A stretch of 64,000 bases of DNA from Candidatus Woesearchaeota archaeon (GTDB taxonomy: Archaea; Nanobdellota; Nanobdellia; SCGC-AAA011-G17; PNOQ01), in assembly GCA_964471565.1 (NCBI GenBank), contig CAYYFK010000001.1, forward strand, positions 36,692 to 100,691, written 5' to 3'. Both the position numbers and the translations under genes were made by a program. Positions 1 through 53,492 of the stretch are shown piece after piece (positions within the stretch are counted from its first letter, which is position 1; each line of letters starts with the position of its first letter). The notes beneath the pieces were generated by a model. It worked only from the letters and a program-made list of their open reading frames with translations, was not told the DNA's origin and made no database searches.

Positions 1-189
1 TTGTTCTCTTGTACATTCATCAACTAATCCTTTAATAGGTTCAACTTGAGAAGCAACAAAAACATCTGCCCTCTCATCACTAGTTATGTTTCCAAGAAGA
101 TCTCCTTGTATAAAAAACAGCCAAGCTAGAACAGCCAAAACAACAATTCCTAAGATTATAAAGATAGTTACCTGTCCTCTCTTTTGCAT
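1..189 (-). CDS. Type IV pilin-like protein with class III signal peptide (partial; continues beyond window start)
   Basis: Reverse-complement translation from ATG at 189: MQKRG|QVTIFIILGIVVLAVLAWLFF..., i.e. KRG followed by about 20 hydrophobic residues. Frame stays open to position 1. Confidence 0.55.
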   Translation of the reverse strand, partial: MQKRGQVTIFIILGIVVLAVLAWLFFIQGDLLGNITSDERADVFVASQVEPIKGLVDECTREQ

Positions 190-227
190 AAATGAAAATA
201 TAAGAACTAAATATATAAAGGTTTCCC

Positions 228-983
228 TTAATCGTTACTAACCCTCGGTGCAAGGATGGTTCTCAACTGTAATCTGTCAGTCAAACCATAAACAATTTCC
301 AATGGATAATCACTTCCAAATTTCAAAGAAACCTTATCTGTTAATTTTGACCCTTTGATTATTTTTTTTAAATACTCAACAGAATATTTTGACTTAACAC
401 TATCCTCATCTCCACCGCCAAACTCGATTTGATTTCCTTCATTAGATTTAATATTTACTTTGGCATCAGAGACATGACTTGCTGCCTCAATAATAAATTC
501 ATCTTTCAATGCAGACAAAATAATGGAATCTGCAATTATTGCCATATCTTCAACAACTTCATTAAAAACACTAGAATTCATTTCAATACTAACTGGAAAT
601 TTTAGCTCTGGAATTTTCTGTTCTCTTTCTCTTATATCAATAAGGCCTAAATTAAATTTTCTTTTACCTTCTCCATCTAACATTATTTTTAATCTATTTT
701 TTTCATTGTCTAGTTCCAAAGTTGTTTTATCATTTGCCTTGGTTCTACTTAATATCTGTTTAAAACTATCTAAATTAATTGCAATTGTTTCCTCCCCTTG
801 AACATCATATTCAACAAAAGAGCTACTCAATAATCTAAAAACAATCATGGCCACATTAGCAGGATCCATAGCAATAATTTCTAACTTATCAGAATCAAAT
901 TTTATTTGAACATCACTTACTAAATCGGAAATAATACTCACGCTCTCTTTTAATAATCTCGGCTCAGCCAATACAACTTTCAT
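228..983 (-). CDS. pcn: DNA polymerase sliding clamp PCNA
   Basis: 251 aa. N-terminus MKVVLAEPRLLKESVSIISDLVSDVQIKFDSDKLEIIAMDPANVAMI matches the archaeal PCNA family in length and pattern. Confidence 0.85.
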   Translation of the reverse strand: MKVVLAEPRLLKESVSIISDLVSDVQIKFDSDKLEIIAMDPANVAMIVFRLLSSSFVEYDVQGEETIAINLDSFKQILSRTKANDKTTLELDNEKNRLKIMLDGEGKRKFNLGLIDIREREQKIPELKFPVSIEMNSSVFNEVVEDMAIIADSIILSALKDEFIIEAASHVSDAKVNIKSNEGNQIEFGGGDEDSVKSKYSVEYLKKIIKGSKLTDKVSLKFGSDYPLEIVYGLTDRLQLRTILAPRVSND

Positions 984-1027
984 CTTAAAAAGGAAAATGG
1001 AGGTTTGTTTTTAATGTTTTCTATACT

Positions 1028-1366
1028 TTAGTATACTCTCCATCTATGTCTACATTTAGTGCACTCAAAAAACCTAGTTTCGGATTCATCACTTGATCGA
1101 GTTTGCAACGTCCAGAAATATGCTTTCTTATTTCCACATTTATTACATTCTTCATCAACCTTTGGCAAAGTTTCAATTTTCTTATCCTGAATTTCTATTT
1201 CTTGCTCTTTAGTTAATCCAACCTTTTCTTTTAAAATCAAATTTTCGGCTTTCCCCCGGGGACTATGTCCACAGGATGAACAACTCGCTTTTTTCTTTTC
1301 ATTATCTAATATCATTAAAGACCCGCATTTTTGACAAAACATTCCGTTCATTTTACCAACCCCCAA
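1028..1366 (-). CDS. tfs: Transcription factor S / RNAP subunit M-like
   Basis: N-terminal C4 Zn-ribbon (CQKCGS...CSSCGH). C-terminal TFIIS-type ribbon CNKCG...QTRSSDESETRFFECTKCRHRW. Confidence 0.85.
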   Translation of the reverse strand: MGVGKMNGMFCQKCGSLMILDNEKKKASCSSCGHSPRGKAENLILKEKVGLTKEQEIEIQDKKIETLPKVDEECNKCGNKKAYFWTLQTRSSDESETRFFECTKCRHRWRVY

Positions 1367-1998
1367 AACATATTTATTATTTCACTAAATTTTATTTTTA
1401 CCCAGCCAAGCAAAGGTAATCTAAACACTGCCTTCCCTATTAATTTGTCTTCACTAATGTCTTCTTCATTTCCAGACATTCTTTCATTATTGTCTCCTTT
1501 TGTTTGGAAATGATATCCTTCATCATCACTCCAAAGATGGACGACCCGATGAATAATTGGGTAATTTAATCCCCCATCAAAAACCACTACATCTCCCACT
1601 TTTATATCTTTCGCTTCTTTCCCAACTAATACAATAACATCTCCTTTGTTAAATCCATTTTTAAAACTATATTCCTCAAAATCTTCCATAGTAATTTCAT
1701 ATTCCTCATACCACTCACCACAAGTTTCCCAATAAGATTTTAAAGAAAAGGGTCCTTTTTTATCAACTTTAGTACCACATAAAATTGGATTCTGACAATC
1801 GTCATCCAAATAACAAGATGACCTATGCTCCATGCTTTCAGAAACAACTGCAACAATTGGATAACCAGTTCCTAAAACGAAACCAATTCCAGGATAGATG
1901 AGAAACTTAACAAGAATAAATGCTAAAATAATAGACACAATCCAACTCCATAAGGAATCTTCGTGCCATAAAAAGTTCCAAATCTTCTTAAAATTCAT
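1348..1998 (-). CDS. Signal peptidase I (archaeal Sec11-type)
   Basis: N-terminal TM segment followed by VVSESMEH (SGSMEP-like catalytic Ser motif). Has a Cys-rich insertion. Confidence 0.6.
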   Translation of the reverse strand: MNFKKIWNFLWHEDSLWSWIVSIILAFILVKFLIYPGIGFVLGTGYPIVAVVSESMEHRSSCYLDDDCQNPILCGTKVDKKGPFSLKSYWETCGEWYEEYEITMEDFEEYSFKNGFNKGDVIVLVGKEAKDIKVGDVVVFDGGLNYPIIHRVVHLWSDDEGYHFQTKGDNNERMSGNEEDISEDKLIGKAVFRLPLLGWVKIKFSEIINMFWGLVK

Positions 1999-2034
1999 AA
2001 CCTAACTTTACAATACTGCCATTTAAAAAACTTT

Positions 2035-2307: not shown

Positions 2308-2336
2308 ATTATAAAATTAGTGAAAATTCTCCTATT

Positions 2337-3384: not shown

Positions 3385-3387
3385 TTT

Positions 3388-11169: not shown

Positions 11170-11940
11170 ATGAAAATTACAAAAGAAGATGTATTGAAAA
11201 CATACAAGTCAGAATTTCATGGTAAAAGGGCCCTGCACCAATACGAACATTGGTTTCCTTTAAGAGCTTCTCCAAGATTAGCAGGAGTGGTTGCCGATTT
11301 AATGGAGGATGGACACTTACAAGATTGGCCAAAGTTAAGATTAGATTATACTTCAAATTCAGAAGAAGAATTAGAAAGGTTCAATCAAGAAATCTATCTG
11401 CTCTTTGGAATAAAAGGAAAGATTAGAGATTGCAAATCAAATAACTATGGTACTAAAAATCTGGGGGTGAATAACAAACCATTATCTAGATTATTAAAAA
11501 TAATTGGAGTTCCAGTAGGCCCAAAAGTATTGACCTCTTTTAAAATACCTAACTGGATAATGGAAAATAAACTCTTATTCTCAAAATTCATAAATAGATT
11601 GATTAGTTGTGAAGGTTGTGTGGATAAAGAAAATAGATACATAGAGATCCAAATGTCTAAATCTATGGGGTTACAAAAGGAAGGTTTAGAATTCTTCAAC
11701 CAAATAAAGCAAGGGTTAGAAAAACACTTTGGAATAATTTCAACAAATCCTTTTCCCGGAGGAAGATACACTAGAAAAGATGGAACAAAAGCAAGAATGA
11801 TTAGATTAAAAATAAAAAGAGCAAAGGCAGTAATATTGTTTAAAGAAAAAATAGGAATAGAAAATCCAGAAAAAAAGAAAAAACTAAGCGAGGTTGCTAA
11901 AAAATTAAAAGAATCTAGTAACATCGAAAGGTTTAAATAA
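11170..11940 (+). CDS. LAGLIDADG-type homing-endonuclease-like protein (free-standing)
   Basis: Two degenerate LAGLIDADG-like motifs about 105 aa apart: LAGVVADLMEDG and INRLISCEGCV. Basic C-terminal tail. Confidence 0.4.
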   Translation: MKITKEDVLKTYKSEFHGKRALHQYEHWFPLRASPRLAGVVADLMEDGHLQDWPKLRLDYTSNSEEELERFNQEIYLLFGIKGKIRDCKSNNYGTKNLGVNNKPLSRLLKIIGVPVGPKVLTSFKIPNWIMENKLLFSKFINRLISCEGCVDKENRYIEIQMSKSMGLQKEGLEFFNQIKQGLEKHFGIISTNPFPGGRYTRKDGTKARMIRLKIKRAKAVILFKEKIGIENPEKKKKLSEVAKKLKESSNIERFK

Positions 11941-13769: not shown

Positions 13770-13811
13770 AAACCTTTATAAAATTCCCTCTCTCTAAATT
13801 TATTAACAGAG

Positions 13812-14342
13812 GTGATGTTCATGAACAATAAAAAGGGTGCAATTGAAATGTCTATGACTACAATAATAATAGTAGTTATTGGGATTACTCTTCTTAGCCT
13901 AGGTTTAGTCTGGGTAAAAACAATATTTGATAATTTAGGAGATACAACTGTAGATGCATTTGATCAAGTAGATGCAGCAATAGGTGAGCTAGGAACTATA
14001 AATAGTCCACTAACAATTAATCCAGACAAAATAAGAGTTGAACAAAAAGGGGCAAAGAGTGTAGATGTGATAGTCGCTAATTTTGAAAGTGAGGATCTTG
14101 TATTCACAGCGGTAGCTGAGGTAGTTGGAGATAATGAGCAAATAAAATGTTTATTCGTGGACACTCGTGAAGGAGAATCTAAAGAATACACCCTAGAATC
14201 GGGACAACAAGCAAAATTATCTCTAATCGCAGATGATAAAAGTAGCGCTCTAGGATTTGATAATTTTTGTAATGTTCAAATAGAGGGATTGTCTGGAGAT
14301 AATATAGAAACTCTTCAAATAGAAATCGTAATGAAAGAATAA
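13812..14342 (+). CDS. Type IV pilin-like protein (class III signal peptide)
   Basis: NNKKG|AIEMSMTTIIIVVIGITLLSLGLVWV. Same IEMS motif as 59799..60365. Confidence 0.6.
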   Translation: MMFMNNKKGAIEMSMTTIIIVVIGITLLSLGLVWVKTIFDNLGDTTVDAFDQVDAAIGELGTINSPLTINPDKIRVEQKGAKSVDVIVANFESEDLVFTAVAEVVGDNEQIKCLFVDTREGESKEYTLESGQQAKLSLIADDKSSALGFDNFCNVQIEGLSGDNIETLQIEIVMKE

Positions 14343-14344: not shown

Positions 14345-14361
14345 TTTTTTTCTTTTTTTCT
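14345..14361 (+). terminator. Oligo-T tract after pilin-like gene
   Basis: ctttttttctttttttc directly after the stop. Archaeal terminators are T-runs. Confidence 0.4.
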
Positions 14362-14400
14362 ATAGAAACCTTTTTAAATAGTTATTTTTCTCCACATGAT

Positions 14401-32900: not shown

Positions 32901-35900
32901 ATATTTTTGTTTGGTCCGTTGCCTGCTCCTTTTATGTGGATTGGGACCCCATCACTTATGTAAAAAGAGTTATTTTCGAACAAACTATTAGAAACATTAA
33001 TCACCCTAATTGCATATCCATTTGTTGATCCAGTACTCATATTAAGGAATCTTGTATCATTCCCCCATACATTATTTTGTATTTTCAACCCACCATTGTT
33101 ATTTGCAGATGCATGGATTGAAACCCATGCTCCAGAAAAATTTCCATGCCAGAAAGTATTATTTTTTATTAATAGGTTTTGGCTATTATTTATTGTTATT
33201 CCATACCTATTAATATAATCATTTTGATTTCCAAATTGATTATCTTTAATTTGCCAATTAGAACCAATATTATTTACTTCTATACAAGAAGAGCTAGAAT
33301 TTTCAAAATAATTTCCTTGAATAATTGTATTATTTGGAGAAGGTCCATAATATTTTATATGTGTACTAGTTAATTTATATGTAAAATTATTATTCTTTAT
33401 TGTTACATTTGAAGAATCATAACCAGATATTCCAGTCCCGGTATTATTGAAAACATTATCTTCAATGTGCCAATTATGTCTTGGACCGGGGGAGCCGCCA
33501 TAATCATACATTGCTATTCCATAACTTGTTGTATTCACAAAGGTATTATTATAAAGATTTATCACTCCAGTTCCCTGGTCTGCCCAAATTCCATCCTCTG
33601 TATTATTCCCATCTATGACAAAACCCTTAAACGTAACATTATTTGCTCCTGTAATAAATCTTATAACAATAGAAGAAGCACTAGTATTTGCTTGTATTAC
33701 TGCTTGTGATTTATTATAAGAAATAAAAGTTCTATTCTGTACATTCTTATCCATAATTAATAAGTAGTTTGATGCATAAGATTGTTCCCTGTATAATCCA
33801 TCTCCAACATAAATAATCGCATTTGCTCCCGCTGTATTTTCTGCATAATTTATAGTCTTCCATGCATCTTTCCAAGAAGTTCCAGCATTAGTATCGTCCC
33901 CATTCTTAGAAACATAATAAGTATTATTAAATTCTTTAAGAGTAAACTCACTTGAATTACCCCACTCACTTCCAGCAAGGCTATCATTTAATCTCATAGC
34001 ACAATGCCAGCTATCTCCTTCGGCCGTATTTCCAGAATCCAAAGATCTATTGAACAAAGTTCCACTAATATAACTATTAGTAGAATTAGTAAAATTTCCT
34101 TCGACTATGTAATCATTACTTCTATACCACCTTACTGTAACATTCATTTTATCAGAATCTGGATCAGTTATTGTAGCAGAACAGTTTAAATCGACAATGG
34201 GAGAATTAGATCCGTCTGTGGTATTTAGAATTGGGCTTGGGTTATTTGGAGCACTATTAGCAGTTCCAAACTCAAAGAAAATAGATTTATCACTTGTTAA
34301 ATTAACCTCCTTAAATTGTCCATCATAACTAGAATGATTAACTACAATAGTGTAATTGGTTTTATATCCATAATTTCCATGGGTCCTATTAATCAAACGT
34401 TCAGTTAGGTTTTGTCTAACTATATTACCATTAATATCTGTTGTAAGATTAAAAACAAGATTATTGGATTTAAATTTAGGCTTGCTCCCACCAGTATTAT
34501 TATATCCCTGAACAACAGAATCCGAAAGATTGCTATTATCAGTAGATAAATTGGTTTTAACATCCAAAAACCATTTAACCTCAAAAGAGTTCCACCCCCT
34601 ATCCCACTGAATATTTCCTGAAGAAGTATTTAATAACGTGTTATTTTCATCTCGTTCTCCGTTCGCCATTCGAAAATTAAGAGAGGATCCAGACACAATA
34701 GAATTAATAAAAGTATTATAAGTTAAATTGGACATATAAAGTGCAGTAGCAGCAGTAATACTAACATTATTGAAAGTATTGCTCTCAGAATGGTAAGTAA
34801 GCCCCCCATATGTGCCTGCAGCATTACAGCTTGAATTTACTATGTGCCCATAAAGGCTTCTACTCATATACATACAATTTGAGTTAGAATCAAAATTAGC
34901 AGAAGTAAGATTAAAATTATCTGTCTCGTGAACATATAAGGCATAGGAGGAAGAGCCCGCCCCAGTAAAATTATTTACAATTAACCCATCGATAGTATGA
35001 GCATATAAACAATAAGTTCCACAAGAACCAACAGAGTTATTTATTAAAGAAATGTCATTAAGACTTCGAGCATAAACTCCCGTAGTAGTAGAAGAAATGA
35101 TATTATTATTAGTAATATTATTAAAAGGACCGTTTGGATAAAGATAAAAACCATATTTATTCCCCTTAAGAGTATTATTATCAAATATATTATTCCTAGA
35201 AGTACTTTGAACAGAGTAGAATGCTGCTGAAGCAGTTTGGGAAGTATGGTTTTCAATTCTATTATCAACCATAGTGCTATTTTGAAAGTTTAACCCAAAA
35301 TCAATTCCATAGTCTTGTGAAGAATCTGTAGTATATATCGTATTATTAGTTATAGTCCAGTTTCCACCATAGCTTAAAAGCATTCCATGATCTGTATTAT
35401 CATAAATTATATTATTTTTTACAATAATATCATATAAATAGGTAACATATATTCCCCATCTATTACTACTAATATTATTGTTACTAAAATTTAACCCATA
35501 AGATCTAGTTGATGAAGAGGCCCTAATGCCTGCCCCACCAGTAATGTTATAAAAAGTATTGCCATCTACTAACCCCCCATTTGTATTTTTAAAATCGATT
35601 CCTAATAATGAACCAGAACCCTGGTAATTCTTAAAAGTATTATTTACAAAAGAAACATTGCTACTAGTCTGAGATTTAATTCCATAATCATACAACTCAG
35701 TAAAAGTATTATTCAGCCAAAGGTTATTATTTCCCCAATTAAATCCGCCCATAGCAAATTGTTTAATATGACAATTTTTTACTGTTATTCCATGTTTATT
35801 ATAAGCTATCCATATTCCCCAATTAGAATCATCCACATTATCTCCATCTATTATATGTCCATCACAATCCAAAACAGTATTGGTAGCAAGAGATAATCCA

Positions 35901-37474
35901 TTTGCAGCACAGTTAGTTATATCATTCTCCATAATCACAGTACCAGAAATTGCTTGTCCACAACTCAAAACATCATTATAAGCATAGGCAATCTGATTTC
36001 CAAATTCAAATTTTAAATAATGCTTAGCATCAGTCAAAACTTTACTAATTTCAATTCCAGTTTCTAAACAAGAGTAATTTTCAACAAAAACAGAGCCATT
36101 CTCCCATAAATATCCAACGCTCTCATTTCCGCATTTCAAATCTAAAAACTGTAAATCTAAATCATTCTTTTCTTTTATGTCCCAAGTTGTTCCATTAAAT
36201 GGTTTTATACTTAAATTGGCAGTTCCTGTTGTATTAAATCTTACAGTCCAATTTCCGCCCACATATGGATAACTTTGAACATTTAAAATTATAATCTCAA
36301 TTTCAAATTCTTTTTGTTTATCTAAAACTGGAATAATCCATTCAATATAATCAATCAAACCATCCTCATCTAAATCTTTAGTTTCAAATTCTCTCTCTAA
36401 CCGTCCTTCCTTTTCTAAAATATACAAATCAATACTTTCCTTAGGAACATTATCTAAATAAGTGTAGACTAAAACATTTTCAAACTCTTTTCCGCTTACA
36501 AAAACCTTCTTTCTCTCATTTCCAAGTTCAACTTCTTTAGATTCAGGACCAGGAGTAGAATATTTTATCAAAAACTCTTTAGAAGGATTCTTTATAGAAA
36601 GTTTATTTTCATCTAACTCATAAACTACTTCTCCAGTAGTTCTAAAAACATCCTTGAAAAAATTAAAAACAACATTGCCTGTAATCAAATTTTCGGATTC
36701 CTTTTCTTTACCCTTCTCAACAAAATCTTCATCATAGCCTATTTCATAATATTCTATATCAAAAACATCCTCAGGCAATTCAACATCATACAAATCTATT
36801 CTATTTTTTAACTTAACCTTCTTTTCCCAAACAACAGGTTGGTTAATTACAACCCCCAAATTCTTCAATGAAACCTCCTCAATCAAAGTTTCATTTACAA
36901 TTTCTACTACTTCATCCAAACTTAAATTTAACACACTATCATTTTTCACATGACTAGAAATATTTTCATCAAAGGTAGATTCATTATCCTCGGGGGTTGT
37001 TTCATTTAAATCAGTAGATTCATTATGTTCAAAAGTAGAATCATTTATTTCTGTAGAAATATTTTGTTTAACTCCCCCTATACCTTCATCCTCCAAACTA
37101 TTTTCAAAAGAGGGTTCTTCTTCAAAAATCTCTTCCTCAGAATCATCTTCTGGAAGTTTTTCTTCTTTCAATTCTTCTTGTGCAGGTTCCTCTAACTGTC
37201 CCTCCCCAGAAAGGCCAGCCACACCTTCTGAACCACTTTCAATATCAGATATTTCAACAACATCAAATCCTTGATAAGCAAACATTCCTAAAAAACCAAA
37301 TAAAAAAAGTAGTGCAACTAAAAAAAATAAAGTAAAAAAAGAAGTATTTCTCTTGGTAGGATCACTAGTTCCTAAATAAACACTTTTTACTTTGCCATCT
37401 TTTGTTCTAACACTTTTAAAATAGTAAGGACCAAATTTCTTTCCAGCTCTAGATATATACTTCTTATAAACCAA
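29930..37474 (-). CDS. Giant (2514 aa) membrane-anchored surface glycoprotein/adhesin with beta-helix repeats, Ig/FN3-like internal repeats and a LamG-like domain
   Basis: TTG start with GAGGGG RBS. N-terminal basic region plus TM. Hundreds of N-x-S/T sequons. PbH1-like repeats (NNIIYDNTDHG...ITNNTIY). LamG signature DELRIYNESLSSEQILANY. Two ~105-aa repeats. Confidence 0.8.
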   Translation of the reverse strand: MVYKKYISRAGKKFGPYYFKSVRTKDGKVKSVYLGTSDPTKRNTSFFTLFFLVALLFLFGFLGMFAYQGFDVVEISDIESGSEGVAGLSGEGQLEEPAQEELKEEKLPEDDSEEEIFEEEPSFENSLEDEGIGGVKQNISTEINDSTFEHNESTDLNETTPEDNESTFDENISSHVKNDSVLNLSLDEVVEIVNETLIEEVSLKNLGVVINQPVVWEKKVKLKNRIDLYDVELPEDVFDIEYYEIGYDEDFVEKGKEKESENLITGNVVFNFFKDVFRTTGEVVYELDENKLSIKNPSKEFLIKYSTPGPESKEVELGNERKKVFVSGKEFENVLVYTYLDNVPKESIDLYILEKEGRLEREFETKDLDEDGLIDYIEWIIPVLDKQKEFEIEIIILNVQSYPYVGGNWTVRFNTTGTANLSIKPFNGTTWDIKEKNDLDLQFLDLKCGNESVGYLWENGSVFVENYSCLETGIEISKVLTDAKHYLKFEFGNQIAYAYNDVLSCGQAISGTVIMENDITNCAANGLSLATNTVLDCDGHIIDGDNVDDSNWGIWIAYNKHGITVKNCHIKQFAMGGFNWGNNNLWLNNTFTELYDYGIKSQTSSNVSFVNNTFKNYQGSGSLLGIDFKNTNGGLVDGNTFYNITGGAGIRASSSTRSYGLNFSNNNISSNRWGIYVTYLYDIIVKNNIIYDNTDHGMLLSYGGNWTITNNTIYTTDSSQDYGIDFGLNFQNSTMVDNRIENHTSQTASAAFYSVQSTSRNNIFDNNTLKGNKYGFYLYPNGPFNNITNNNIISSTTTGVYARSLNDISLINNSVGSCGTYCLYAHTIDGLIVNNFTGAGSSSYALYVHETDNFNLTSANFDSNSNCMYMSRSLYGHIVNSSCNAAGTYGGLTYHSESNTFNNVSITAATALYMSNLTYNTFINSIVSGSSLNFRMANGERDENNTLLNTSSGNIQWDRGWNSFEVKWFLDVKTNLSTDNSNLSDSVVQGYNNTGGSKPKFKSNNLVFNLTTDINGNIVRQNLTERLINRTHGNYGYKTNYTIVVNHSSYDGQFKEVNLTSDKSIFFEFGTANSAPNNPSPILNTTDGSNSPIVDLNCSATITDPDSDKMNVTVRWYRSNDYIVEGNFTNSTNSYISGTLFNRSLDSGNTAEGDSWHCAMRLNDSLAGSEWGNSSEFTLKEFNNTYYVSKNGDDTNAGTSWKDAWKTINYAENTAGANAIIYVGDGLYREQSYASNYLLIMDKNVQNRTFISYNKSQAVIQANTSASSIVIRFITGANNVTFKGFVIDGNNTEDGIWADQGTGVINLYNNTFVNTTSYGIAMYDYGGSPGPRHNWHIEDNVFNNTGTGISGYDSSNVTIKNNNFTYKLTSTHIKYYGPSPNNTIIQGNYFENSSSSCIEVNNIGSNWQIKDNQFGNQNDYINRYGITINNSQNLLIKNNTFWHGNFSGAWVSIHASANNNGGLKIQNNVWGNDTRFLNMSTGSTNGYAIRVINVSNSLFENNSFYISDGVPIHIKGAGNGPNKNMTIRNNAIDHNVSAISVPAGYSIYVGEDTVTNFQGDMNDTIIENNTIRMARVHTSKHPLFTASTFNTTIRYNRVIGGGYGILSKHETLYRAYNNTMENQTNFEGFVTRAGHNTTIYNNTFFCPNYNRTESPMAIVAKNAKYENPRNVTNLQVYNNRIYVHNQSYIYGFSDNGTNFSNTNFTTHDNIIILNNSNQNVSWENNTGIRYNFTEQQKKYNLDYNSIFSATEEIPWVLNRTNTTGYTTVDINWTSQESSNASLNYGGTVSLGTTYGNLSLGLFHSFNLSGLSEGTIYYYNLTSCDYENNCNETGTYNFTTGTSNVAPNTPSPLLNATGGPTNYTTQNLNCSATITDPDSNKLNVSVRWYNNSVLWLSQDYNDSYASGTLFNATLNSSNTTKWEVWNCSIRLHDGTIFGGWGNSSNITILNTIPSAYTNVLLNTTSDSNTNYTDENLTVYFDTYVDNDGDGIYNITDWRLNGNSSAVLNAPFDSNESSIALNIIKDYSTFGNNGTLQQWEGGSSLNYPVWINSGAKGGAYSLNPNESVRPYINFSHTDSLNITKELTVEIWVNKSKDLDYQSFVMKGSGAAEGTAGHRNSFLLRAWTSGDVQFRILGAAAADQAYSATTSGGVSVGGWHHVVGVYDRQNISLYIDGVRTEGEEYTGNIRDSSIDVLVGRDTYYPGRMFNGSVDELRIYNESLSSEQILANYQAGLANHSPMRILSNGTVKTHNWSVAITPNDLEEDGPVTLSNPLLILNKPPNQVVLDSPANLNITVDRTETSNWSIPNDADGDSLTYLLELDDSDAFSEPIIINVSPATNEYTILSDLDLDLSYWWRVRANDSSDLGVWSDPYNFTVQSLLAVSLINESPNFGRLYTGDMDNTTDESPTPIVVKNDGNALINISVNATTLFDAVAMDTSYYQFRIDNSSEETAFDWLNSFVTWTNMATAQVIAIDSLKYQDTNDTAQCEILIELPSDEPAGNKTSYILFESSLTE
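31631..31948 (-). repeat. Internal domain repeat copy 2 in giant gene (NVAPNTPSPLLN...CSATITDPDSNKLNVSVRWY...)
   Basis: See copy 1. The copies are about 2.3 kb apart within the same ORF. Confidence 0.7.
33944..34258 (-). repeat. Internal domain repeat copy 1 in giant gene (NSAPNNPSPILN...CSATITDPDSDKMNVTVRWY...)
   Basis: About 30-nt near-identical DNA core (agaatctggatcagttattgtagcagaaca) shared with copy 2. Protein copies about 50% identical. Confidence 0.7.
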
Positions 37475-37924: not shown

Positions 37925-38800
37925 TTATATTTTTTTCACCATATTATTTATTCTCTTTAGTCCTTTTCTATACGCATCCTGCCCTATATATTTAGAATCG
38001 TATGCTTTTTTTAACAATCTTTTTTGCCTACTTAACTTATTTGCCATAGCAGTCTTTGCTTCTCGTGTTTTTTTGTTTTTTCTGTATGTTCCATACATTC
38101 TCTTTAATCTCTTAGATTGCGTTTTTTCTATTCTTCTTAATTTTGTTTGGTGGAATATAAAAACAAGCAATATAGCAATTCCCAACAAAACTAAAACAAA
38201 CCAGAATCCTACTTCCCATCCGGATGGAAAGAAAATCATTGGTTGTTTAATCTTTTCAGTTCTAGTTCTAGGAACACTCTTATCTCCAATAAGAGTCAAA
38301 TCGAGTGCTTTAAATTTTATTCCAACCCCATTAAAACTTGCCACTAAATCATCAGAACCATCCTCATCCAAATCAAAGAACAATAGTTCATCTGGAAGAA
38401 GACCAAACTTCTGACCAGAAATTTCTAAAATAAGTTTTTCATTGGCCCTATAGAAATAAACACTAAACTCAAACTCAGTTCCTAACTCAAAAATAGTAAG
38501 TACTTTATCCCCCGCTGATAAACCCTCTATCAAATATTCTTCATTTTCTGTAAAATCTAGAGTATGTGTTACAGGAGCAGCTCCACCTCCGGCTCCGCCA
38601 CTTCCCCCTCCAGATCCACCATCATCTCCAGGAGGATCAGAAGGTACAATTACATTCAAACCAACAGTGGCAGTAGCATAAGAATCTTCAGGAGCCACAG
38701 AAGAAGAATACTTAAAATACAATACACTTGGCATAACTATAGAAATAATTATTAATGCGAAAGCTAAAGAGGCAATTACTTCTCTTTTATACACTTTCAT
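37925..38800 (-). CDS. Bitopic membrane protein with Gly-rich linker and basic C-terminal tail
   Basis: N-terminal TM. DDGGSGGGSGGAGGGAAP. Second TM VGFWFVLVLLGIAILLVFIF, then a K/R-rich coiled tail. Confidence 0.5.
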   Translation of the reverse strand: MKVYKREVIASLAFALIIISIVMPSVLYFKYSSSVAPEDSYATATVGLNVIVPSDPPGDDGGSGGGSGGAGGGAAPVTHTLDFTENEEYLIEGLSAGDKVLTIFELGTEFEFSVYFYRANEKLILEISGQKFGLLPDELLFFDLDEDGSDDLVASFNGVGIKFKALDLTLIGDKSVPRTRTEKIKQPMIFFPSGWEVGFWFVLVLLGIAILLVFIFHQTKLRRIEKTQSKRLKRMYGTYRKNKKTREAKTAMANKLSRQKRLLKKAYDSKYIGQDAYRKGLKRINNMVKKI

Positions 38801-39945
38801 CTTTTACCATCTCTTTTTTTCTTTATTCTTATCAAAATAAAATACCCAATTCCAAATACAATAATAAAAATACCTGCCCCTACCCAAAGAATGGAATAAT
38901 CAAATGATTTAACTTCAATATCAAATTCTTCTTCAGTGTGTATATCATCATAAATAAGGCTCAATCTAGCAGGATATTTTCCAGAACTCATTCCTTCAGC
39001 ATCCACATATATTAAAACATCTCTTTCCTCCCAAGAATTTAATCTAAATGTCTCACTTTTGAAAGACTTAAATGGATTATGATATATTTCTAAAAAAGCA
39101 ACTACATTATCTATTTCATTACCCCAATCACTTTTCACTCTCAAATAATATCGGTTTATTGTACCAACCTCTACATCATTATCATAATCTAAAATAGAAA
39201 CATGTACATCTCCCAACTTAAAATTTGCCATAGATTCAGAAGTTTTACCTTGAAAGTTTAAAGTTGACATGCCCCAATAGTCTCCAAATGTATTATCTTC
39301 AGGATTCCATTTCATTTGTATCTCTTTTATTTCTCCCAATTCTAATTGATCATTAAAAGAAAGTTGACCAACACTCTCGTTATAAACATTAAAAATATCT
39401 ATAACTCCTTCAATATTACTAAGAGCGACACTACCTGTATTTTCCATTTTTAAATAAAAAGGAACTAGCTCTCCAACCGAAACACTAGTAGCTTTCAATC
39501 TTGAGCTCAAGTATGGCCCTTCAAAAGGCACTCTAACAATAAAAATACTCGCAGAAGCAGTTAAAACACTAATAAAATCGGTTGATTCTTCAATAGCGAT
39601 TTCACTAGCAACAAAATCAAAACGATAATCTCCAGGTTTTTCAAATTTTTCTGGCATGAGAATATTAAATCTAAAAGCTTTAGTTTCCCCAGGTTGGAAT
39701 AAATACTCCTGAGTTACAAAGTCTGTATAGTTTTCCATTTCACCATAAACAAACATCTTTCCAAGAACTTGCTCTTCATTAGAATTTCTAACATGAACAC
39801 TAACTCCTTTTGCCATTCCAGATTCAAATGTAACTACATCCTTACTTGGAGTTACCTCCAAAGCATACGCACTAGAAAACATACACAACAAAACCAAGAA
39901 AATAATTATTCCCCTCTTTACCATGTTTAAAGAAAAAGAAAGCAA
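38797..39945 (-). CDS. Surface protein, N-terminal signal and C-terminal TM anchor (paralogue of 28734..29933)
   Basis: Signal ...SSAYA|LE. C-terminal ILWVGAGIFIIVFGIGYFILIRIKKKRDGKR. Shared blocks with 28734..29933 (PGDYRFDFVASEI vs PGDHDVKIVVREI; GVIDIFNVYNE vs GIIDIYGLTNE). Confidence 0.6.
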   Translation of the reverse strand: MLSFSLNMVKRGIIIFLVLLCMFSSAYALEVTPSKDVVTFESGMAKGVSVHVRNSNEEQVLGKMFVYGEMENYTDFVTQEYLFQPGETKAFRFNILMPEKFEKPGDYRFDFVASEIAIEESTDFISVLTASASIFIVRVPFEGPYLSSRLKATSVSVGELVPFYLKMENTGSVALSNIEGVIDIFNVYNESVGQLSFNDQLELGEIKEIQMKWNPEDNTFGDYWGMSTLNFQGKTSESMANFKLGDVHVSILDYDNDVEVGTINRYYLRVKSDWGNEIDNVVAFLEIYHNPFKSFKSETFRLNSWEERDVLIYVDAEGMSSGKYPARLSLIYDDIHTEEEFDIEVKSFDYSILWVGAGIFIIVFGIGYFILIRIKKKRDGKR

Positions 39946-39963
39946 GGTTTTTAAAAATTACTA

Positions 39964-40530
39964 TTATCCTGTAAAGGTGCAAATAAAAGTTATAGTTCCA
40001 CTTTTCATTCCTGATCCCTCTCCGATTGGAACAGTAGCATTTACACTAACATTCATCTCATCAGTAGCAGCCGCAAAAGCTAGATCAGAAACCAAAATTT
40101 CGGCCGCACCAACAGAATTATTAATAATTTTAAAGCCAGTTACGCAAGTTCCACTTTCAGTTTCATTACATTGCATTGTCCAATTTTGAGTTGGTGCTGT
40201 CTCTGTTATAAATAAATCATCCGTAGAATAACCAGTTATGTTCTGCCCCACATTTCCTGTATTCTCCAAAACTATAAAATCTGGAACCGTAATCTCTTCG
40301 CTCCTATTATAATTTCCCCTAGTTATATTTCCTAAATTAATTGTACTATCTATAGCACTACAGGCAGTAGTGGTATTGACCTCCAATTTAACAGTTCCAG
40401 TAGTAGTAGCAGCTCCAGTTATAGTGTCCATAAAAGAAACACTAAGCCAAGTTCCAGAAACAGAAGCGATAATCGCCATAGCCAATAAAATAGCTAAACT
40501 ATTATTCGATGCCTTCATTTCCCTCAACAC
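39964..40530 (-). CDS. Secreted N-glycosylation-rich small surface protein, tandem paralogue 1
   Basis: Signal MKASNNSLAILLAMAIIASVSG. About 10 N-x-S/T sequons in 188 aa. About 75% aa identity to 40779..41321. Confidence 0.6.
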   Translation of the reverse strand: MLREMKASNNSLAILLAMAIIASVSGTWLSVSFMDTITGAATTTGTVKLEVNTTTACSAIDSTINLGNITRGNYNRSEEITVPDFIVLENTGNVGQNITGYSTDDLFITETAPTQNWTMQCNETESGTCVTGFKIINNSVGAAEILVSDLAFAAATDEMNVSVNATVPIGEGSGMKSGTITFICTFTG

Positions 40531-40801
40531 CCTCTTCTTTTATTTCATCAGCCACGACATTCAAACCTACAAATCCAGTAGCACTAGACTCCAAAACTAT
40601 ATTATTAGTGACTGGCCCACCATAAGAATGAGAATAGTCATAAACTGCATATGCCCCAAAGATGGAAACAATAACTGCCACAACCAACAAAGCAATAATG
40701 ACCTTGTCAGAGACCTCTCTCTTATCACCTTTTTTCATATAAAGAATATGAGAAGTAAAAATATATAAATCTTTTCCTTTAACCAGAGTATGTACAAACA
40801 A
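40502..40801 (-). CDS. Small membrane protein (likely starts at internal MKKGDKRE...)
   Basis: MKKGDKREVSDKVIIALLVVAVIVSIFGAYAV: one TM helix, acidic C-terminus. Lies between the tandem paralogues. Confidence 0.35.
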   Translation of the reverse strand: MFVHTLVKGKDLYIFTSHILYMKKGDKREVSDKVIIALLVVAVIVSIFGAYAVYDYSHSYGGPVTNNIVLESSATGFVGLNVVADEIKEEGVEGNEGIE

Positions 40802-41321
40802 AAGTTATAGTCCCAGTTTTCATTCCAGAGGACTCTCCGATAGGTACAGTAGCATTCACACTAACATTCATCTCATCAGTAGCAGCTATAGTAACCAAAT
40901 CATTAACTAATGTTTCCGCAGTTCCTACAGACGAATTTATTATTTTAAACCCATTCACACAGGTTCCACTCTGGCTTACATTGCACTGCATTGTCCAATT
41001 TTGAGTAGGGGCAGCTGAAGAATCAAACAAATCCGAAGTAGAATAACCAGTTATATTAAGTAAAACATTTCCGTTATTCTCAATAACAACAAAATCAGTA
41101 TCAGGAGTGCCATCAATCTCTTCACTCCTATTATAATTTCCCCTAGTTATATTTCCCAAATTAATTGTACTATCTGTAGCAGTACAAGAAGTAGAAGCAT
41201 TAACTTCCAATTTTATAGTCCCAGTTGTAACTGCTGCCCCTGTTATAGTATCCATAAAAGAAATTGCTACCCACGTGCCAGTTATAGTAGACACAACTGA
41301 AATTACCAACAAAATCACCAA
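40779..41321 (-). CDS. Secreted N-glycosylation-rich small surface protein, tandem paralogue 2 (non-ATG start)
   Basis: Long DNA stretches identical to paralogue 1 (e.g. ctcctattataatttcccctagttatatttcc). No in-frame ATG; upstream in-frame codons still encode ...SNNFLVILL matching the paralogue-1 signal. Confidence 0.55.
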   Translation of the reverse strand: MVILLVISVVSTITGTWVAISFMDTITGAAVTTGTIKLEVNASTSCTATDSTINLGNITRGNYNRSEEIDGTPDTDFVVIENNGNVLLNITGYSTSDLFDSSAAPTQNWTMQCNVSQSGTCVNGFKIINSSVGTAETLVNDLVTIAATDEMNVSVNATVPIGESSGMKTGTITFVCTYSG

Positions 41322-45336: not shown

Positions 45337-45337
45337 A

Positions 45338-47681: not shown

Positions 47682-48659
47682 TTATTGATTACTCAATATC
47701 TTTATATCTCTTTTAGTAGTTTCAGTGTATTTATATTCAACGCTTACATCTAAGCTTTGAGTATATTGTGCAGTTTGATCCACATCCATTATACATACAA
47801 GGATCTTTTCTTGCCCTTCAGCCAAAGTTAAATCTCCTTCAACTCCACTTCCGGATGGGAAATTACAAGAGATTGCCTCTGGATCAACATTGTTTATTTT
47901 AACATGCACCTTATTCTTTTCTTGTTGTGCAGCTAAAAGATCGATATCTTCACAAGAGACTACATCACTATATACATTCCCAGTTCCTTTATTTTCAAAG
48001 CCTATTTTAAAACTAACTTGACTAAGTCCTCTTAATTCCTCATTAAAGCTAGTTATCTGTACTGGTCCACTAGAAACACTCCCACTACCCAAATTAACTC
48101 CAGCATAATCACATACTTCTTCTGAATCTGAATCTTCTATTCTCTTAGAAGTAACACATGCCTCTATATCAGATTTAGTTTGATATGGATAACAAATCTT
48201 AGCAAATAACGTAGTGTCATAAAATTGCTGATTAATTGTTCCAGAATAATCTATTTCTCCCATATCAACCAAGGCCTCTCCACCAACATCAAAAATATCT
48301 TTCTCAATTGGATATAGGCTATTTGAGACTAATTTAAAATCGAAATCCAATGTACTAAATTCATTTGGTGCTACACCAAAAAGTTTAAGTTTCACAGTAT
48401 TTTCTGGAACTTCGTACTCGCCCATATTAATAACTTTAATTTTAACATCTACAACATCATCTTCGCCAAATTCAGAAGGGGGCATTCCCTCTTCAAATTT
48501 CATTTGTAAAGCATCATTTCCACCGATATATGGTCCAATTCCTCCACCAGTAGGTGTAGTTCCCTGCTCACAAGCAGCAACAAAAATCACCATCACAGCC
48601 AAAAACGCTAACATTATTTTTTTCATAATATCTCCCTCCTTTATTGATCGTCCCACCAA
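47682..48659 (-). CDS. Secreted protein with lipobox-like signal (IFVAAC-EQ)
   Basis: MKKIMLAFLAVMVIFVAACEQG. 3' end overlaps the next gene. Confidence 0.5.
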   Translation of the reverse strand: MVGRSIKEGDIMKKIMLAFLAVMVIFVAACEQGTTPTGGGIGPYIGGNDALQMKFEEGMPPSEFGEDDVVDVKIKVINMGEYEVPENTVKLKLFGVAPNEFSTLDFDFKLVSNSLYPIEKDIFDVGGEALVDMGEIDYSGTINQQFYDTTLFAKICYPYQTKSDIEACVTSKRIEDSDSEEVCDYAGVNLGSGSVSSGPVQITSFNEELRGLSQVSFKIGFENKGTGNVYSDVVSCEDIDLLAAQQEKNKVHVKINNVDPEAISCNFPSGSGVEGDLTLAEGQEKILVCIMDVDQTAQYTQSLDVSVEYKYTETTKRDIKILSNQ

Positions 48660-49555
48660 TCGGTATTGAACACAATTTTCTTAGATTTTACTGATTTATA
48701 TTTGTATCCTAAATTTATATTGAGATTATCTTTATAAATTATAGGCGATTCATCAAATTTCAAGTCAGCCGTACACTCAATTGGGTCTCCTTCTTGGAAT
48801 ACAACTCTTCCTTCTCTATCCTTACATGTAAACTCTGCTTGAGTTCCACTTAAAAAAACATGAACATCAATCAAATCAAATTGGCTATCTTTTTCCTTAA
48901 CTATCTCTCCAGTTGATGCTTTGTTTAGATATATTTTCAAATCTATTTTGCTATTTCCAGCAACTCTCCTTATATCCTTCTCAATTTTAGAAACAACCAA
49001 CGGAAATGCCTTTTGTTGTATTTCGGAATTGCCTAAACTTTCCTCTGCGTCACAATCAATATCATATTGTAAATTTGGATTATCTAAAATACATACATCA
49101 ACACTAGAAAGGCTATCAATCGAAAATTTCATCTCAGCGTATATATTTACATCTCCAACACTATCGTCAAGATCATGATAAGAATAAGTAGCCATTTCAG
49201 AAGGGAAATAAATTATTTTCTCAGAAGGAATAATTGTTCCCTTGCTTCCTTCATATGCTTCATCTACATATTCAGAAATACAGTCCTCAGTTACAGGAAC
49301 CCCCCCATAATAATCGGATCTATCTCCTTTGATGCACAAATCAAATTCTGCCCTTTCTGTCAATTCATTAAAAACTTTTAATCCTACTTGAAATTCCTCC
49401 TCTTCTGACAGATCTTCTTGAGGATAATCTTCTAGAAACTCAAAATCTAAAACCTTTGGGCCAACTCCGAGTCCCTCTTGACTAGGTTGCTCACAAGAAG
49501 AAATCACTAACAAACTAATTACTAAAAAAAATACAATTCCTCTTTTTTCAACCAT
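48641..49555 (-). CDS. Secreted protein with lipobox-like signal (VISSC-EQ)
   Basis: MVEKRGIVFFLVISLLVISSCEQP. Acidic, Cys-containing. Confidence 0.5.
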   Translation of the reverse strand: MVEKRGIVFFLVISLLVISSCEQPSQEGLGVGPKVLDFEFLEDYPQEDLSEEEEFQVGLKVFNELTERAEFDLCIKGDRSDYYGGVPVTEDCISEYVDEAYEGSKGTIIPSEKIIYFPSEMATYSYHDLDDSVGDVNIYAEMKFSIDSLSSVDVCILDNPNLQYDIDCDAEESLGNSEIQQKAFPLVVSKIEKDIRRVAGNSKIDLKIYLNKASTGEIVKEKDSQFDLIDVHVFLSGTQAEFTCKDREGRVVFQEGDPIECTADLKFDESPIIYKDNLNINLGYKYKSVKSKKIVFNTDWWDDQ

Positions 49556-50922: not shown

Positions 50923-50930
50923 ACCTCTTT

Positions 50931-52091
50931 TTATTCATAAACTATTTTTAATTCATCAATACTAAATTCGCTATCTGGCCTAACCTCTACAAAATTATTT
51001 CCTTTTCTAATAAAGTTACTAATATCAAATTGAGCAAAAGTATTTTCAGTGTTTAGATTAATTATTTCATCATTAATTATAATTTCAGCTTTTTTCCTAT
51101 CTCCAAACATTTCCAAACTAAGATAATAATCTTCTGCATCTTCATATACATCATTTCTTATATAAAACGAGTATGATGGAAAAACCCTTCCTTCAACTTC
51201 ATTTCTGATCTCTATATCACTAATTAAGTAATCTCCTCCACTAACACTAAATTTAAGTTCATTAACTCCAGATTCAAAATCTTCTTCATCTAGTTCAACA
51301 GTATATTCATCACTCATACAAGGAACTAATTTACTAAATATCAAACGGCTATTCAAATAGGCTTTCATAATGTTACTTTCCCCAGCATTGCCCTTGCAAA
51401 ATACAAAGAATTGTAATTCAGAATCTTGAATTGATCTTTTCTCAGAAGAACTAACTGAAAAATCTAGAATTTCGAAGGAGTGAACTATCTCATATTCTTT
51501 TTTTAGTTTTATATCCTTCAAATAATATTCATTGCTAGACCAGAAAACCAAACCTGAAGGACTAACTTGTAATCTAAGTTTATTTTCCTCTTCCAAATAT
51601 TCCTTTGGTAAACTAATAGTCTCTATTCTATTTTCATTAAGTTTTTGATTTAGAATTTGTTTTCCATTTAAAGTAAGAATCAAATCTCCACTAGCATCAA
51701 CTACTGCAAATCTCAAGGACAACCTATCTATGGAATCAAGGTTATTCAAACCAAATTCCAACTCTTGATCTAATTCTCCAAATAATCCATTTCTAATTTC
51801 TAAAGAATTCGATAATATTACAGTTTCTGGTTCATCATGAATAAATAAATCTACAGATTCAAGGGGATGATCAATTACATCATCATAATCCAAATCCAAA
51901 TTTCCTGGAGAAACCTTCAAGAGTACTCCTTCAGACAACTCGCCATCACATTCCTCACTACAATCATCACCCAATAGCCTACATCTTTCACAAGGGGGCA
52001 TAACAAGGGTATACAAAATAATAAGAATCGCAATTAGTATTATCAGCCCTTGTATCTTTGGGTCATTCCCTCTTTTATTCATAAAGAACAT
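50931..52091 (-). CDS. Secreted/anchored protein (KRG N-terminus, Cys-rich start)
   Basis: MFFMNKRG|NDPKIQGLIILIAILIILYTLVMPPCERC... Confidence 0.45.
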   Translation of the reverse strand: MFFMNKRGNDPKIQGLIILIAILIILYTLVMPPCERCRLLGDDCSEECDGELSEGVLLKVSPGNLDLDYDDVIDHPLESVDLFIHDEPETVILSNSLEIRNGLFGELDQELEFGLNNLDSIDRLSLRFAVVDASGDLILTLNGKQILNQKLNENRIETISLPKEYLEEENKLRLQVSPSGLVFWSSNEYYLKDIKLKKEYEIVHSFEILDFSVSSSEKRSIQDSELQFFVFCKGNAGESNIMKAYLNSRLIFSKLVPCMSDEYTVELDEEDFESGVNELKFSVSGGDYLISDIEIRNEVEGRVFPSYSFYIRNDVYEDAEDYYLSLEMFGDRKKAEIIINDEIINLNTENTFAQFDISNFIRKGNNFVEVRPDSEFSIDELKIVYE

Positions 52092-52131
52092 ACATTATTT
52101 AAAACTTAAAAATAATTTAAAAGCCTTTCTG

Positions 52132-52539
52132 TTAAACAAAGTATTTTATGTATTTCGGAAATTCTTCTTTCATCATCAAATCTACTCTATTTTCCGACTT
52201 TATCTCTTCTTTAATATCTTTACCACTTACTTCATTCTTCAAAAAAACATGACATAATTCGTGAAAAACAATTGCCTTAACAAAATTCGAATCGCTAGTT
52301 AAATTATTTATAATATCTTCATTTAAGCAAATTCTCTCTTCTTCACCATGAACAACAAGTGCTCCAACCTTTAGAGGAATTTTCATCTTAATCTCTTCCT
52401 TAATCAATGGACTCTTTTTAGCCAATCGCCAAAATTCATCCAAACTCACCATAGAAATCTGGCAAGTCACTTTATGTTTCTTAGAAAATTCATTATGGGC
52501 CTCTCCAGCCAAAGATTTTACTTCTTTTTTTGAAAACAT
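52132..52539 (-). CDS. Small HExxH zinc metallopeptidase-like protein (DUF45/YgjP/WLM-like)
   Basis: AIVFHELCHVFL; HELCH is the DUF45 signature. 135 aa. Confidence 0.45.
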   Translation of the reverse strand: MFSKKEVKSLAGEAHNEFSKKHKVTCQISMVSLDEFWRLAKKSPLIKEEIKMKIPLKVGALVVHGEEERICLNEDIINNLTSDSNFVKAIVFHELCHVFLKNEVSGKDIKEEIKSENRVDLMMKEEFPKYIKYFV

Positions 52540-52613
52540 AAATAAAAAAAGTAAATTAAATTTATAATGATTTCCATACTAAATTTTATAAATACCCTAT
52601 TCTCTCTAAAGAT

Positions 52614-53492
52614 ATGGAAATTATGATTATAGCATTGGTTTTTATCTATCTAATAATTTCTACAATTTCAGATATAAAAACTACAGAAATTCCTGATTTC
52701 TTAAATTATTCATTTATTTTTATTGGAATTTTCATTTATGGATTAAAAACGTTAGTGACTAATAATAATACTTATTTTCTATCCTCGATAATAACAGTAG
52801 GCATATTTTTTATACTTGGGGCAATTATGTACTACACTAAACAGTGGGGGGGAGCAGATTCAAAATTACTTATGGGTCTAGGGGCATTAATCCCAATATA
52901 TCCAGCGATTCTGTTAAATACTTTTTCACTTAAAACTTCAACATTTTTGGGAATAGATCTCTTTCTAAATCTATTAGTAGTTGGGGCAATTTATTCATTG
53001 CTTTTCGTTATCCACCTTATTATAAAAAACAGAAAAAAATTCAAAAAAGAATTCAAAAAAATATATCAAAAAAAGGAAGTAAAACTATTCGAAAAGATTA
53101 TGTGGATTTCAATAATCCTAATTAATGTACTTAGTTTTTTCTTATTTCAAAATAGTTTACAAAAGAATTTTGTGATTACAATCTCTTTGATTATCCTTTT
53201 ATTTAATTATTTAACAATCTCTATAAAAGCTATAGAAAACGTTTCAATGTATAAAACAATATCTACAACAAGATTGAGAGTTGGAGACTATATAACAAAA
53301 GAACTAAAAACCAACAATAAGATAATATACAAGCCAATAGTTCATGGAATAAATGAAAAACAAATGAAAGAAATAAAAAAACATTTCTCAAAAGTCGAAG
53401 TAAAGGAAGGGATAGTCTTCGCACCTGTATTTTTAGTTGCAACAACAATAACTTTATTTTTCGGAAATATACTTCTCTACTTATTACCCTAA
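52614..53492 (+). CDS. Prepilin/preflagellin peptidase (A24 family; PibD/FlaK-like)
   Basis: ISTISD(20)IKTTEIPD (D-x7-IPD) and WGGAD(82)SKLLMGLG (GxGD-K). Asp-Asp spacing of 62 matches FlaK/PibD. At least 6 TM helices. Confidence 0.8.
   Translation: MEIMIIALVFIYLIISTISDIKTTEIPDFLNYSFIFIGIFIYGLKTLVTNNNTYFLSSIITVGIFFILGAIMYYTKQWGGADSKLLMGLGALIPIYPAILLNTFSLKTSTFLGIDLFLNLLVVGAIYSLLFVIHLIIKNRKKFKKEFKKIYQKKEVKLFEKIMWISIILINVLSFFLFQNSLQKNFVITISLIILLFNYLTISIKAIENVSMYKTISTTRLRVGDYITKELKTNNKIIYKPIVHGINEKQMKEIKKHFSKVEVKEGIVFAPVFLVATTITLFFGNILLYLLP

Follow-up and report, generated by a model that had tools for sequence, protein, structure and literature searches.

A predicted A24 prepilin peptidase and a candidate major pilin family with an early glutamate in a Woesearchaeota-type archaeon

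Does one prepilin peptidase serve both the pilin operon and the dispersed pilin-like genes of an archaeon, and does a shared motif beyond the cleavage site mark some of its substrates as a class of their own? We address this question in a 64,000-nucleotide stretch of contig CAYYFK010000001.1 (the window), which encodes a predicted A24 peptidase (52614..53492), an operon of small pilin-like proteins (59089..63973) and three further genes, at 1..189, 13812..14342 and 50931..52091, whose KRG or KKG N-termini had been proposed as class III signal peptides. All three N-termini are present on translation. The original prediction went further, and proposed that the proteins of 13812..14342 and 59799..60365, which both carry I-E-M-S at +2 to +5 after the Gly, form a dedicated substrate subclass recognised by the peptidase. 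We arrive at a different picture, to which we give a probability of about 0.6: the A24 peptidase would process the precursors of the operon together with dispersed ones, and the protein of 13821..14342 would be the bulk subunit.

The candidate major pilin gene (13821..14342, + strand) encodes 173 amino acids. Its open reading frame extends to an upstream in-frame GTG at 13812 and from there reads V-M-F-MNNKKGAIEMSMTTIIIVVIG (...MNNKKGAIEMSMTTIIIVVIGITLL), but the true start is most likely the ATG at 13821, because this codon has a GGTGA Shine-Dalgarno sequence and an upstream TATA box, and because the homologues begin MNNKKG. The leader MNNKKG then occupies 13821..13838, cleavage is predicted before the Ala at 13839 and the I-E-M-S codons span 13842..13853. 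An element resembling a transcription factor B recognition element (BRE) and TATA box, AAACCTTTATAAAA (13770..13783, +), lies ahead of the pilin gene, and a near-identical one, AAACCTTTTTAAATA (14366..14380, +), lies ahead of the gene for ribosomal protein eS19; both are predicted promoter elements, and their likeness may point to a strong BRE/TATA consensus in this archaeon. Directly after the pilin stop codon stands an oligo-T run (14345..14359, +), a candidate archaeal terminator, and the gene is therefore probably monocistronic.

The gene belongs to a very large family. A word-index search returned 53 homologues. At E ≤ 1e-3, an exhaustive search by profile matched the representatives of 3,237 clusters formed at 50% identity, of which 1,193 also passed E ≤ 1e-10; almost all are 160-190 amino acids long. 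When one genome per GTDB species was scanned, 102 species carried the family, and their labels were Woesearchaeota, Nanoarchaeota/Nanoarchaeia, Pacearchaeota or unclassified archaeon only. Pfam and NCBIfam scans found no model for the family, which the source databases call 'hypothetical protein', and full-text searches of the literature that paired DPANN or Woesearchaeota with pilins or class III signal peptides turned up no account of it or of its Glu at +3.

The conservation of this family is concentrated around the predicted cleavage site. Its N-terminal consensus, [KR][KR][GA]↓A-[ILV]-E-[LM]-S-M-T-T-I-I (the arrow marks predicted cleavage here and below), is nearly invariant; conservation is far higher over the first ~25 residues of the mature protein (A-[ILV]-E-[LM]-S-M-T-T-I-I-V-V-I-G-I-T-L-L) than over the head, and every invariant column of the alignment (K-2, A+1, E+3, T, I, G, L, L) falls within the first 30 residues. 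Among 141 representatives with less than 50% mutual identity, the leaders are 4-12 amino acids long, position -1 is G, or A in some, and position -2 is K or R in nearly all; the mature protein begins AIELS in 58, ALELS in 32 and AVELS in 13, with AIEMS a minority form. The N-terminal module is confined to one size class and usually present in one copy per locus.

An AlphaFold2 model built on the family alignment (mean pLDDT 85) has a 50-residue N-terminal helix (residues 7-56) followed by a nine-strand beta sandwich, and the predicted structure is thus the usual pilin lollipop, a long helix with a beta-rich head. Two giant proteins, P0142 (2650 amino acids) and P0194 (2059 amino acids), contain 21 and 17 tandem copies of the head but lack the pilin N-terminus, so the head is a module that surface proteins can reuse. 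A recurrence of the head in the 2514-residue giant of the window was considered and dropped, as the profile search found no match there.

In the window, the pilin gene stands between a gene for a CBM96 surface protein and eS19-L31e, and the latter pair is a recurrent neighbour: 48 of 81 loci have it within 0-5 kb of the pilin gene, which mostly lies upstream on the same strand. In 5 of the 12 loci that were read, a cysteinyl-tRNA synthetase, assigned from its N-terminus and not by family search, lies between them. These traits suit a major pilin encoded apart from its machinery: the gene is small, apparently core and monocistronic, and the N-terminal helix of its product is the best-conserved part and resembles those of the pilins within the operon. 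Archaeal major pilins are often encoded apart from their machinery (PMC4371748).

The enzyme that would cut these leaders is encoded at 52614..53492 (+); it has 292 residues, about eight hydrophobic segments by hydropathy scan and a soluble insert of ~55 residues ahead of the last segment. It matches the Pfam family Peptidase_A24 (PF01478) over residues 8-114 with 46.3 bits against a cut-off of 26.5. D20 (codon 52671..52673) and D28 lie in D-IKTTEIP-D (D-x7-D), and D82 (codon 52857..52859, GGAD-SK) lies 62 residues beyond D20 in WGGADSK. A phmmer alignment with FlaK (3S0X; E 4.8e-7, residues 11-137 aligned) places D20 on the FlaK Asp of VQD-FRSREIE-D, and GGADSK on GGGDGK. The Pfam match and this alignment bear out the earlier claim that both catalytic Asp residues are present with canonical spacing. 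The protein is no FlaK equivalog (NCBIfam NF040695, FlaK_Arch), scoring 53.9 bits against a cut-off of 330 with its N-terminal 150 residues alone matching, and no other NCBIfam model matched it at E ≤ 0.1. Judged by these comparisons, it is a genuine A24 family member, predicted to be of the prepilin type.

The peptidase shares with the FlaK/PibD-type class III signal peptidases (MEROPS A24B; PF01478) a polytopic architecture, a first Asp after the first transmembrane (TM) segment (D-x7-D, I-P-D) and a second Asp in G-x-x-D-x-K. It differs from them in having GGAD rather than GGGD, the residue preceding D82 being Ala and not Gly, and in its score far under the FlaK equivalog cut-off. Archaeal prepilin peptidases occur in a 5-TM PibD/FlaK form and a 9-TM EppA form (Makarova et al., PMC4858521), and the window peptidase, with its length, segment number and insert, is intermediate between the two. 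Its predicted substrates include proteins with Gln at +1, whereas Methanococcus maripaludis FlaK does not accept Gln at this position (PMC4371748). Unlike the bacterial prepilin peptidase, it has no methyltransferase domain. Its gene stands alone on the + strand, flanked by the genes for EF-1beta and a small SprT-like HExxH protein, and relatives whose neighbouring pilin is as little as 64% identical keep this arrangement. The latter neighbour (52132..52539, -) encodes 135 amino acids, contains a HELCH motif and matches a SprT-like Pfam family weakly (E 6.5e-4); it adjoins the A24 peptidase in every syntenic contig (L001-L004, L098 and the P0057 contig).

The pilin operon and the peptidase remain syntenic in relatives, and in the syntenic contigs the peptidase gene stands about 8 kb downstream of the operon. 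In the window the operon comprises ten small proteins with N-terminal hydrophobic helices (59089..63973, -), of which seven carry KRG or KKG leaders (gene starts at 63973, 63140, 62279, 61898, 61750, 60365 and 59814). The window ends inside this operon, but its continuation can be read from syntenic contigs (L001-L004, L098 and L099; 64-91% identity at the orthologue of 59799..60365), which contain a T2SSE ATPase gene, a gene for a 703-residue membrane protein, the ten small genes and an RPA-like gene. The ATPase (764-772 amino acids, Pfam T2SSE 53.5 bits) and the polytopic 703-residue protein are encoded directly upstream of the operon, i.e. just past window base 64000.

Three operon members bear most directly on the question. 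The protein of 59799..60365 (-; 188 amino acids, translation MILKNKRGQIEMSDIVAIMF) begins KNKRG↓QIEMSDIVAIMF, with I-E-M-S codons at 60327..60338. That of 61920..62279 (-; 116-119 amino acids) begins KKRG↓QELSTNTIIVVILAVLVL and has its Glu at +2 (QELSTNTIIVVI follows KRG). The third, 61253..61750 (-; 165 amino acids), begins MKKRG↓AKLSISVLMGLLVG, and its orthologue in L098 (L098:1467-1943) begins MNKKAIELSMTTLIGLLVG (MNKKAIELSMTT). Acidic residues are common within the first six mature residues of the candidates, at +3 in 13821..14342, 59799..60365 and the gene at 63128, at +2 in 61920..62279, at +5 in the gene at 62976 and at +6 in the gene at 61752.

We compared the operon with the dispersed family by means of a profile (A1) made from an alignment of 41 family members and searched against 338 open reading frames. 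It matched 61920..62279 (E 1e-5, 20.2 bits), aligning KKRG↓QELSTNTIIVVILAVLVL with KKG↓AIELSMTTIIVVVIGITLL; it also matched the L098 and L099 orthologues of this protein (E 1.2e-7 and 6e-6) and the L098 orthologue of 61253..61750 (E 1.5e-7). There is hence a real shared N-terminal module, consisting of an aliphatic residue or Gln, Glu, [LM] and Ser, two to three residues past the cleavage site, and its members are 13821..14342, 61920..62279 and the L098 orthologue of 61253..61750.

The remaining KRG N-termini of the window are of two kinds. The gene at 1..189 (-) is cut off by the window edge and stands immediately downstream of the PCNA gene (228..983); the 63 N-terminal residues that are available (MQKRGQVTIFIILGIVVLAVLAW...) begin MQKRG↓QVTIFIILGIV. 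The motif MQKRG↓QVT[IVL]F[IV]I[IV]GI is near-invariant in 13 metagenome loci, on proteins of 274 to >830 amino acids, and the same QVT-type N-terminus occurs ~10 kb from the pilin gene in loci L025 and L026. With Gln at +1 and hydrophobic residues immediately after it, 1..189 is a good class III candidate; its product is probably either a minor pilin or a surface protein presented on the pilus. The syntenic version in L086 has 290 amino acids, follows PCNA and precedes the gene for a 1281-residue Cys-rich secreted protein (L086:6875-10720); the equivalent of this Cys-rich gene would sit just left of window base 1.

The protein of 50931..52091 (-; 383-386 amino acids, MFFMNKRGNDPKIQGLIILIAIL; the identical database protein P0059 starts MNKRG) is of another kind. 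Its 'KRG' site reads NKKG, NKIG, NKLA, NRLG or TKRG across 18 homologues, six to seven polar residues (NDPKIQG) separate it from the hydrophobic helix, and a conserved QG|L precedes that helix. In an AlphaFold2 model (pLDDT 83.8), a short TM helix (residues 12-29) leads through a Pro-Pro/Cys-rich linker to two jelly-roll (galactose-binding-like) domains; the top Foldseek matches of the protein in the PDB are a beta-galactosidase, reelin repeats and BcsB. This protein is more likely a plain membrane-anchored surface protein of carbohydrate-binding-like type, and its standing as a class III substrate is doubtful.

A class III site in archaea requires G, A or S at -1 together with a charged -2 residue (PMC4371748; PMC3387779), and in most archaea one peptidase serves all substrates (PMC4371748). 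The leaders of 13821..14342 (MNNKK-G), 1..189 (MQKR-G) and 59799..60365 (KNKR-G) have this form, and in each a hydrophobic stretch of ~20 amino acids runs from the cleavage site, a feature absent from 50931..52091. The class III assignment is supported for the first three proteins and doubtful for the fourth. No window candidate matched Class_IIIsignal (PF04021), and no pilin candidate matched the archaellin family (PF01917) or bacterial N_methyl (PF07963), in Pfam scans at E ≤ 0.1; across the Pfam and NCBIfam scans, none of the pilin candidates had a meaningful family match.

We now weigh three other ways of reading these N-termini. The proposal that I-E-M-S marks a subclass whose +2 to +5 residues are recognised by the peptidase draws on an identity that is not pure chance, since the expected number of four-residue matches at these positions among the 78 pairs of window candidates is ~0.009 (using position-specific residue frequencies from 73 non-redundant KRG-type N-termini); moreover, an I or V at +2, Glu at +3 and a small residue at +5 are conserved across both families. 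Yet the letters, identical as they are in the two window proteins, do not behave as a conserved signature. The family of 59799..60365 is small, and after KRG its five homologues read QIESA (in a 91% identical protein), QVETG, QIETS, QIETS and QIETS, so that Gln+1, Ile/Val+2 and Glu+3 persist, Ser+5 varies and Met+4 occurs in the window copy only. AIEMS is itself the minority form in the dispersed family. BLASTP between the two window proteins confines their likeness to the first 13 residues, and profile A1 finds 61920..62279 in the operon while giving 59799..60365 an E of 5.6, i.e. no similarity. Other predicted substrates of the system differ widely at +1 to +5 (QVTIF, AKLSI, FSLAT, QLGWE), and known archaeal prepilin peptidases read chiefly -2, -1 and +1 (PMC3387779; PMC4371748). 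Recognition of a dedicated I-E-M-S subclass is hence improbable; the identity appears to be a shared I-E constraint and, at +4 and +5, largely coincidence. The lesson is that an identical four-residue motif in two proteins of one genome was no conserved signature.

A second reading holds that the dispersed KRG N-termini are uncleaved signal-anchors, in which K and R follow the positive-inside rule on ordinary anchored proteins, and that the peptidase acts on the operon pilins only. KRG does precede Sec- or lipoprotein-type signals elsewhere in the window, at 21504..23249 (...SSANA↓ATS), 38797..39945 (...SSAYA↓LEV) and 48641..49555 (...ISSC), all on the - strand; signal peptides in this genome seem generally to place a Gly after a basic pair, and KRG alone is therefore not diagnostic of class III here. 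The unconserved KRG, polar spacer, short helix and jelly-rolls of 50931..52091 suit an anchor as well, as does the fact that homologues of 13821..14342 never adjoin the machinery. For 13821..14342 itself, however, a [KR][KR][GA] immediately ahead of an Ala that never varies, position -1 being either G or A throughout >140 representatives less than 50% identical, fits a processing site better than it fits a charge cluster; its 50-residue helix is better conserved than the head and its N-terminal module recurs in operon pilins, while the MQKRGQVT of 1..189 is near-invariant on proteins of very different length. We consider this reading unlikely as a whole. Far less probable still is that the N-termini are Sec signal peptides cut by signal peptidase I, with mature proteins that are soluble or S-layer associated. 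A positively charged n-region followed by a hydrophobic h-region is shared by both signal types, and the three KRG proteins just named do carry A-x-A or lipobox sites; yet 13821..14342, 1..189 and 59799..60365 lack a small-x-small c-region past the hydrophobic stretch, and in the model of 13821..14342 the helix is unbroken to residue 56. Cleaved Sec peptides are normally not the best-conserved part of a protein, whereas here every invariant column lies in that segment.

Our preferred reading, in which the peptidase serves the operon and the dispersed precursors, translates into a simple mechanism. The peptidase would cut the 4-12-residue leaders after the Gly or Ala of [KR][KR][GA] in all these precursors. 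Once the leader is removed, the new N-terminus would be a hydrophobic helix, and such helices would be built into a filament by the ATPase and platform. As the best candidate for the major pilin, 13821..14342 would supply the bulk subunit of this filament, with 61920..62279 and other operon proteins as minor or priming pilins. Bacterial pilins require Glu5 to assemble but not to be cleaved. By analogy, the near-invariant Glu at +3 (+2 in 61920..62279) most likely pairs its charge with the N-terminus of a neighbouring subunit, within the membrane or the core of the filament; it is more likely an assembly determinant than a peptidase recognition element. A single peptidase for all leaders fits the statement that most archaea have one (PMC4371748).

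Several observations weigh against this reading. The 703-residue 'platform' has no Pfam match, T2SSF included, and owes its label to its position. The conserved acidic site undergoes a charge reversal, from Glu in the L098 protein (MNKKA-I-E-LSMTT) to Lys in 61253..61750 of the window (MKKRG-A-K-LSISV; KRG↓AKLSISVLMG), and about 7 of the 141 family representatives have Q, D or N in place of Glu at +3. In the PDB, the head of 13821..14342 matches only generic immunoglobulin (Ig)-like, PapD-like or macroglobulin-type sandwiches, with no solved archaeal pilin among the top matches; since Ig-like sandwiches are so generic, the fold search is neutral on pilin identity. The single A24 peptidase is the one visible within the 64-kb window, and a second copy elsewhere in the genome could escape view. 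Lastly, a phmmer search with the window peptidase and the L001 ATPase and platform against all open reading frames of 84 loci (10 kb to either side of each pilin gene) found none of the three kinds of homologue (A24 peptidase, T2SSE ATPase, platform) less than 10 kb from the pilin gene in 80 loci; co-localisation of this family with the pilus machinery is rejected, and its link to that machinery is therefore indirect. The Lys of 61253..61750, too, would be unexpected should the Glu pair with the amine of an N-terminus in the filament.

How does this system compare with characterised ones? Like the Epd pilins of Methanococcus, the substrates of EppA, the window proteins have short K-G leaders, Gln at +1 (in 1..189, 59799..60365, 61920..62279 and the gene at 62976) and an acidic residue near the mature N-terminus, and in both cases an operon holds many pilin-like genes and the major pilin, here a candidate, is encoded away from the machinery. 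The DUF361/Class_IIIsignal motif is Q(+1)-x-S(+3)-x-E(+5)-x-x-x-L (PMC2910488). In contrast to the Epd pilins, the window proteins have their Glu at +3 or +2 rather than +5, the dispersed family has an invariant Ala at +1 rather than Gln, and its predicted structure includes a beta-sandwich head, whereas the main Epd pilin has no globular head (2026 preprint). The bacterial type IV, Com and Tad-Flp pilins (G↓FTLIE..., G↓ATAIEY...) are cut after Gly, as is predicted here, and share an aliphatic-Glu-[LM] near the new N-terminus, an extremely conserved N-terminal helix and a variable head; they differ in that the window Glu is two residues nearer the cleavage site, that the charged -2 is an archaeal trait and that PF07963 has no match here. 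The substrate-binding proteins of the Sulfolobales bindosome set a precedent for large, non-pilin class III surface proteins encoded away from the machinery, and on their model the peptidase could also act on 50931..52091 or on the long MQKRG↓QVT proteins; the window differs in that no ABC transporter is encoded next to these genes, and in the polar spacer between KRG and helix in 50931..52091.

The wider content of the window agrees with a DPANN origin. Its G+C content is 31%, and its housekeeping genes (PCNA, RadA, eS19, L31e, EF-1beta and an RPA-like OB-fold protein) are archaeal. Homologues of its proteins carry the labels Candidatus Woesearchaeota, Nanoarchaeota or Nanoarchaeia, and the source is therefore a DPANN archaeon; the best explanation of the window is a Woesearchaeota-type DPANN archaeon with one type-IV-pilus-like system. 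Predicted surface proteins are abundant and include a 2514-residue beta-helix/LamG protein, a DUF2341 protein, a CBM96 protein and a lamin-tail-domain protein. The DUF2341 protein (26686..28701, -) is a secreted protein of 671 amino acids whose domain scores 68 bits, and it lies near the beta-helix/LamG giant (29930..37474, -). DUF2341 has been linked to PilY-like pilus-tip adhesins (Makarova et al. 2016, PMC4858521), and this protein may be pilus-associated.

Other features of the window stand apart from the pilus. The gene for the CBM96 surface protein is preceded, at a distance of 150 bp, by a free-standing LAGLIDADG_3 homing-endonuclease-like gene (11170..11940, +; Pfam 37 bits). A secreted-protein cluster at 37925..41321, with no Pfam match above the curated cut-off, holds two paralogues of ~180 amino acids (39964..40530 and 40779..41321, both -) that share ...SFMDTITGAA(T/V)TTGT(V/I)KLEVN after an N-terminal hydrophobic stretch. 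Both paralogues were rejected as class III candidates, because no [KR][GA] immediately precedes the helix and a TGAA-type site follows it.

DPANN archaea are considered dependent on physical host contact, and pili have been observed on such cells. That they have A24 peptidases and type IV pilus-like systems is known in outline; what appears new, in the literature searched, is a very large candidate pilin family and its +3 Glu signature. A 2016 census of archaeal type IV pili could not identify the cognate pilins of the nanoarchaeal ATPases (PMC4858521). We suggest tentatively, at somewhat less than even odds, that the ~175-residue [KR][KR]G↓A-[ILV]-E-[LM]-S-M-T-T family is the major pilin of Woesearchaeales/Pacearchaeales-type DPANN, forming a host-contact filament with its Glu at +3 instead of +5, and encoded by a core gene beside ribosomal protein genes. 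A lineage-wide pilin family delimited in this way would provide a model for annotation, a predicted mature N-terminus (AIE[LM]SMTTII...) for metaproteomics to look for and a candidate subunit for structural biology.

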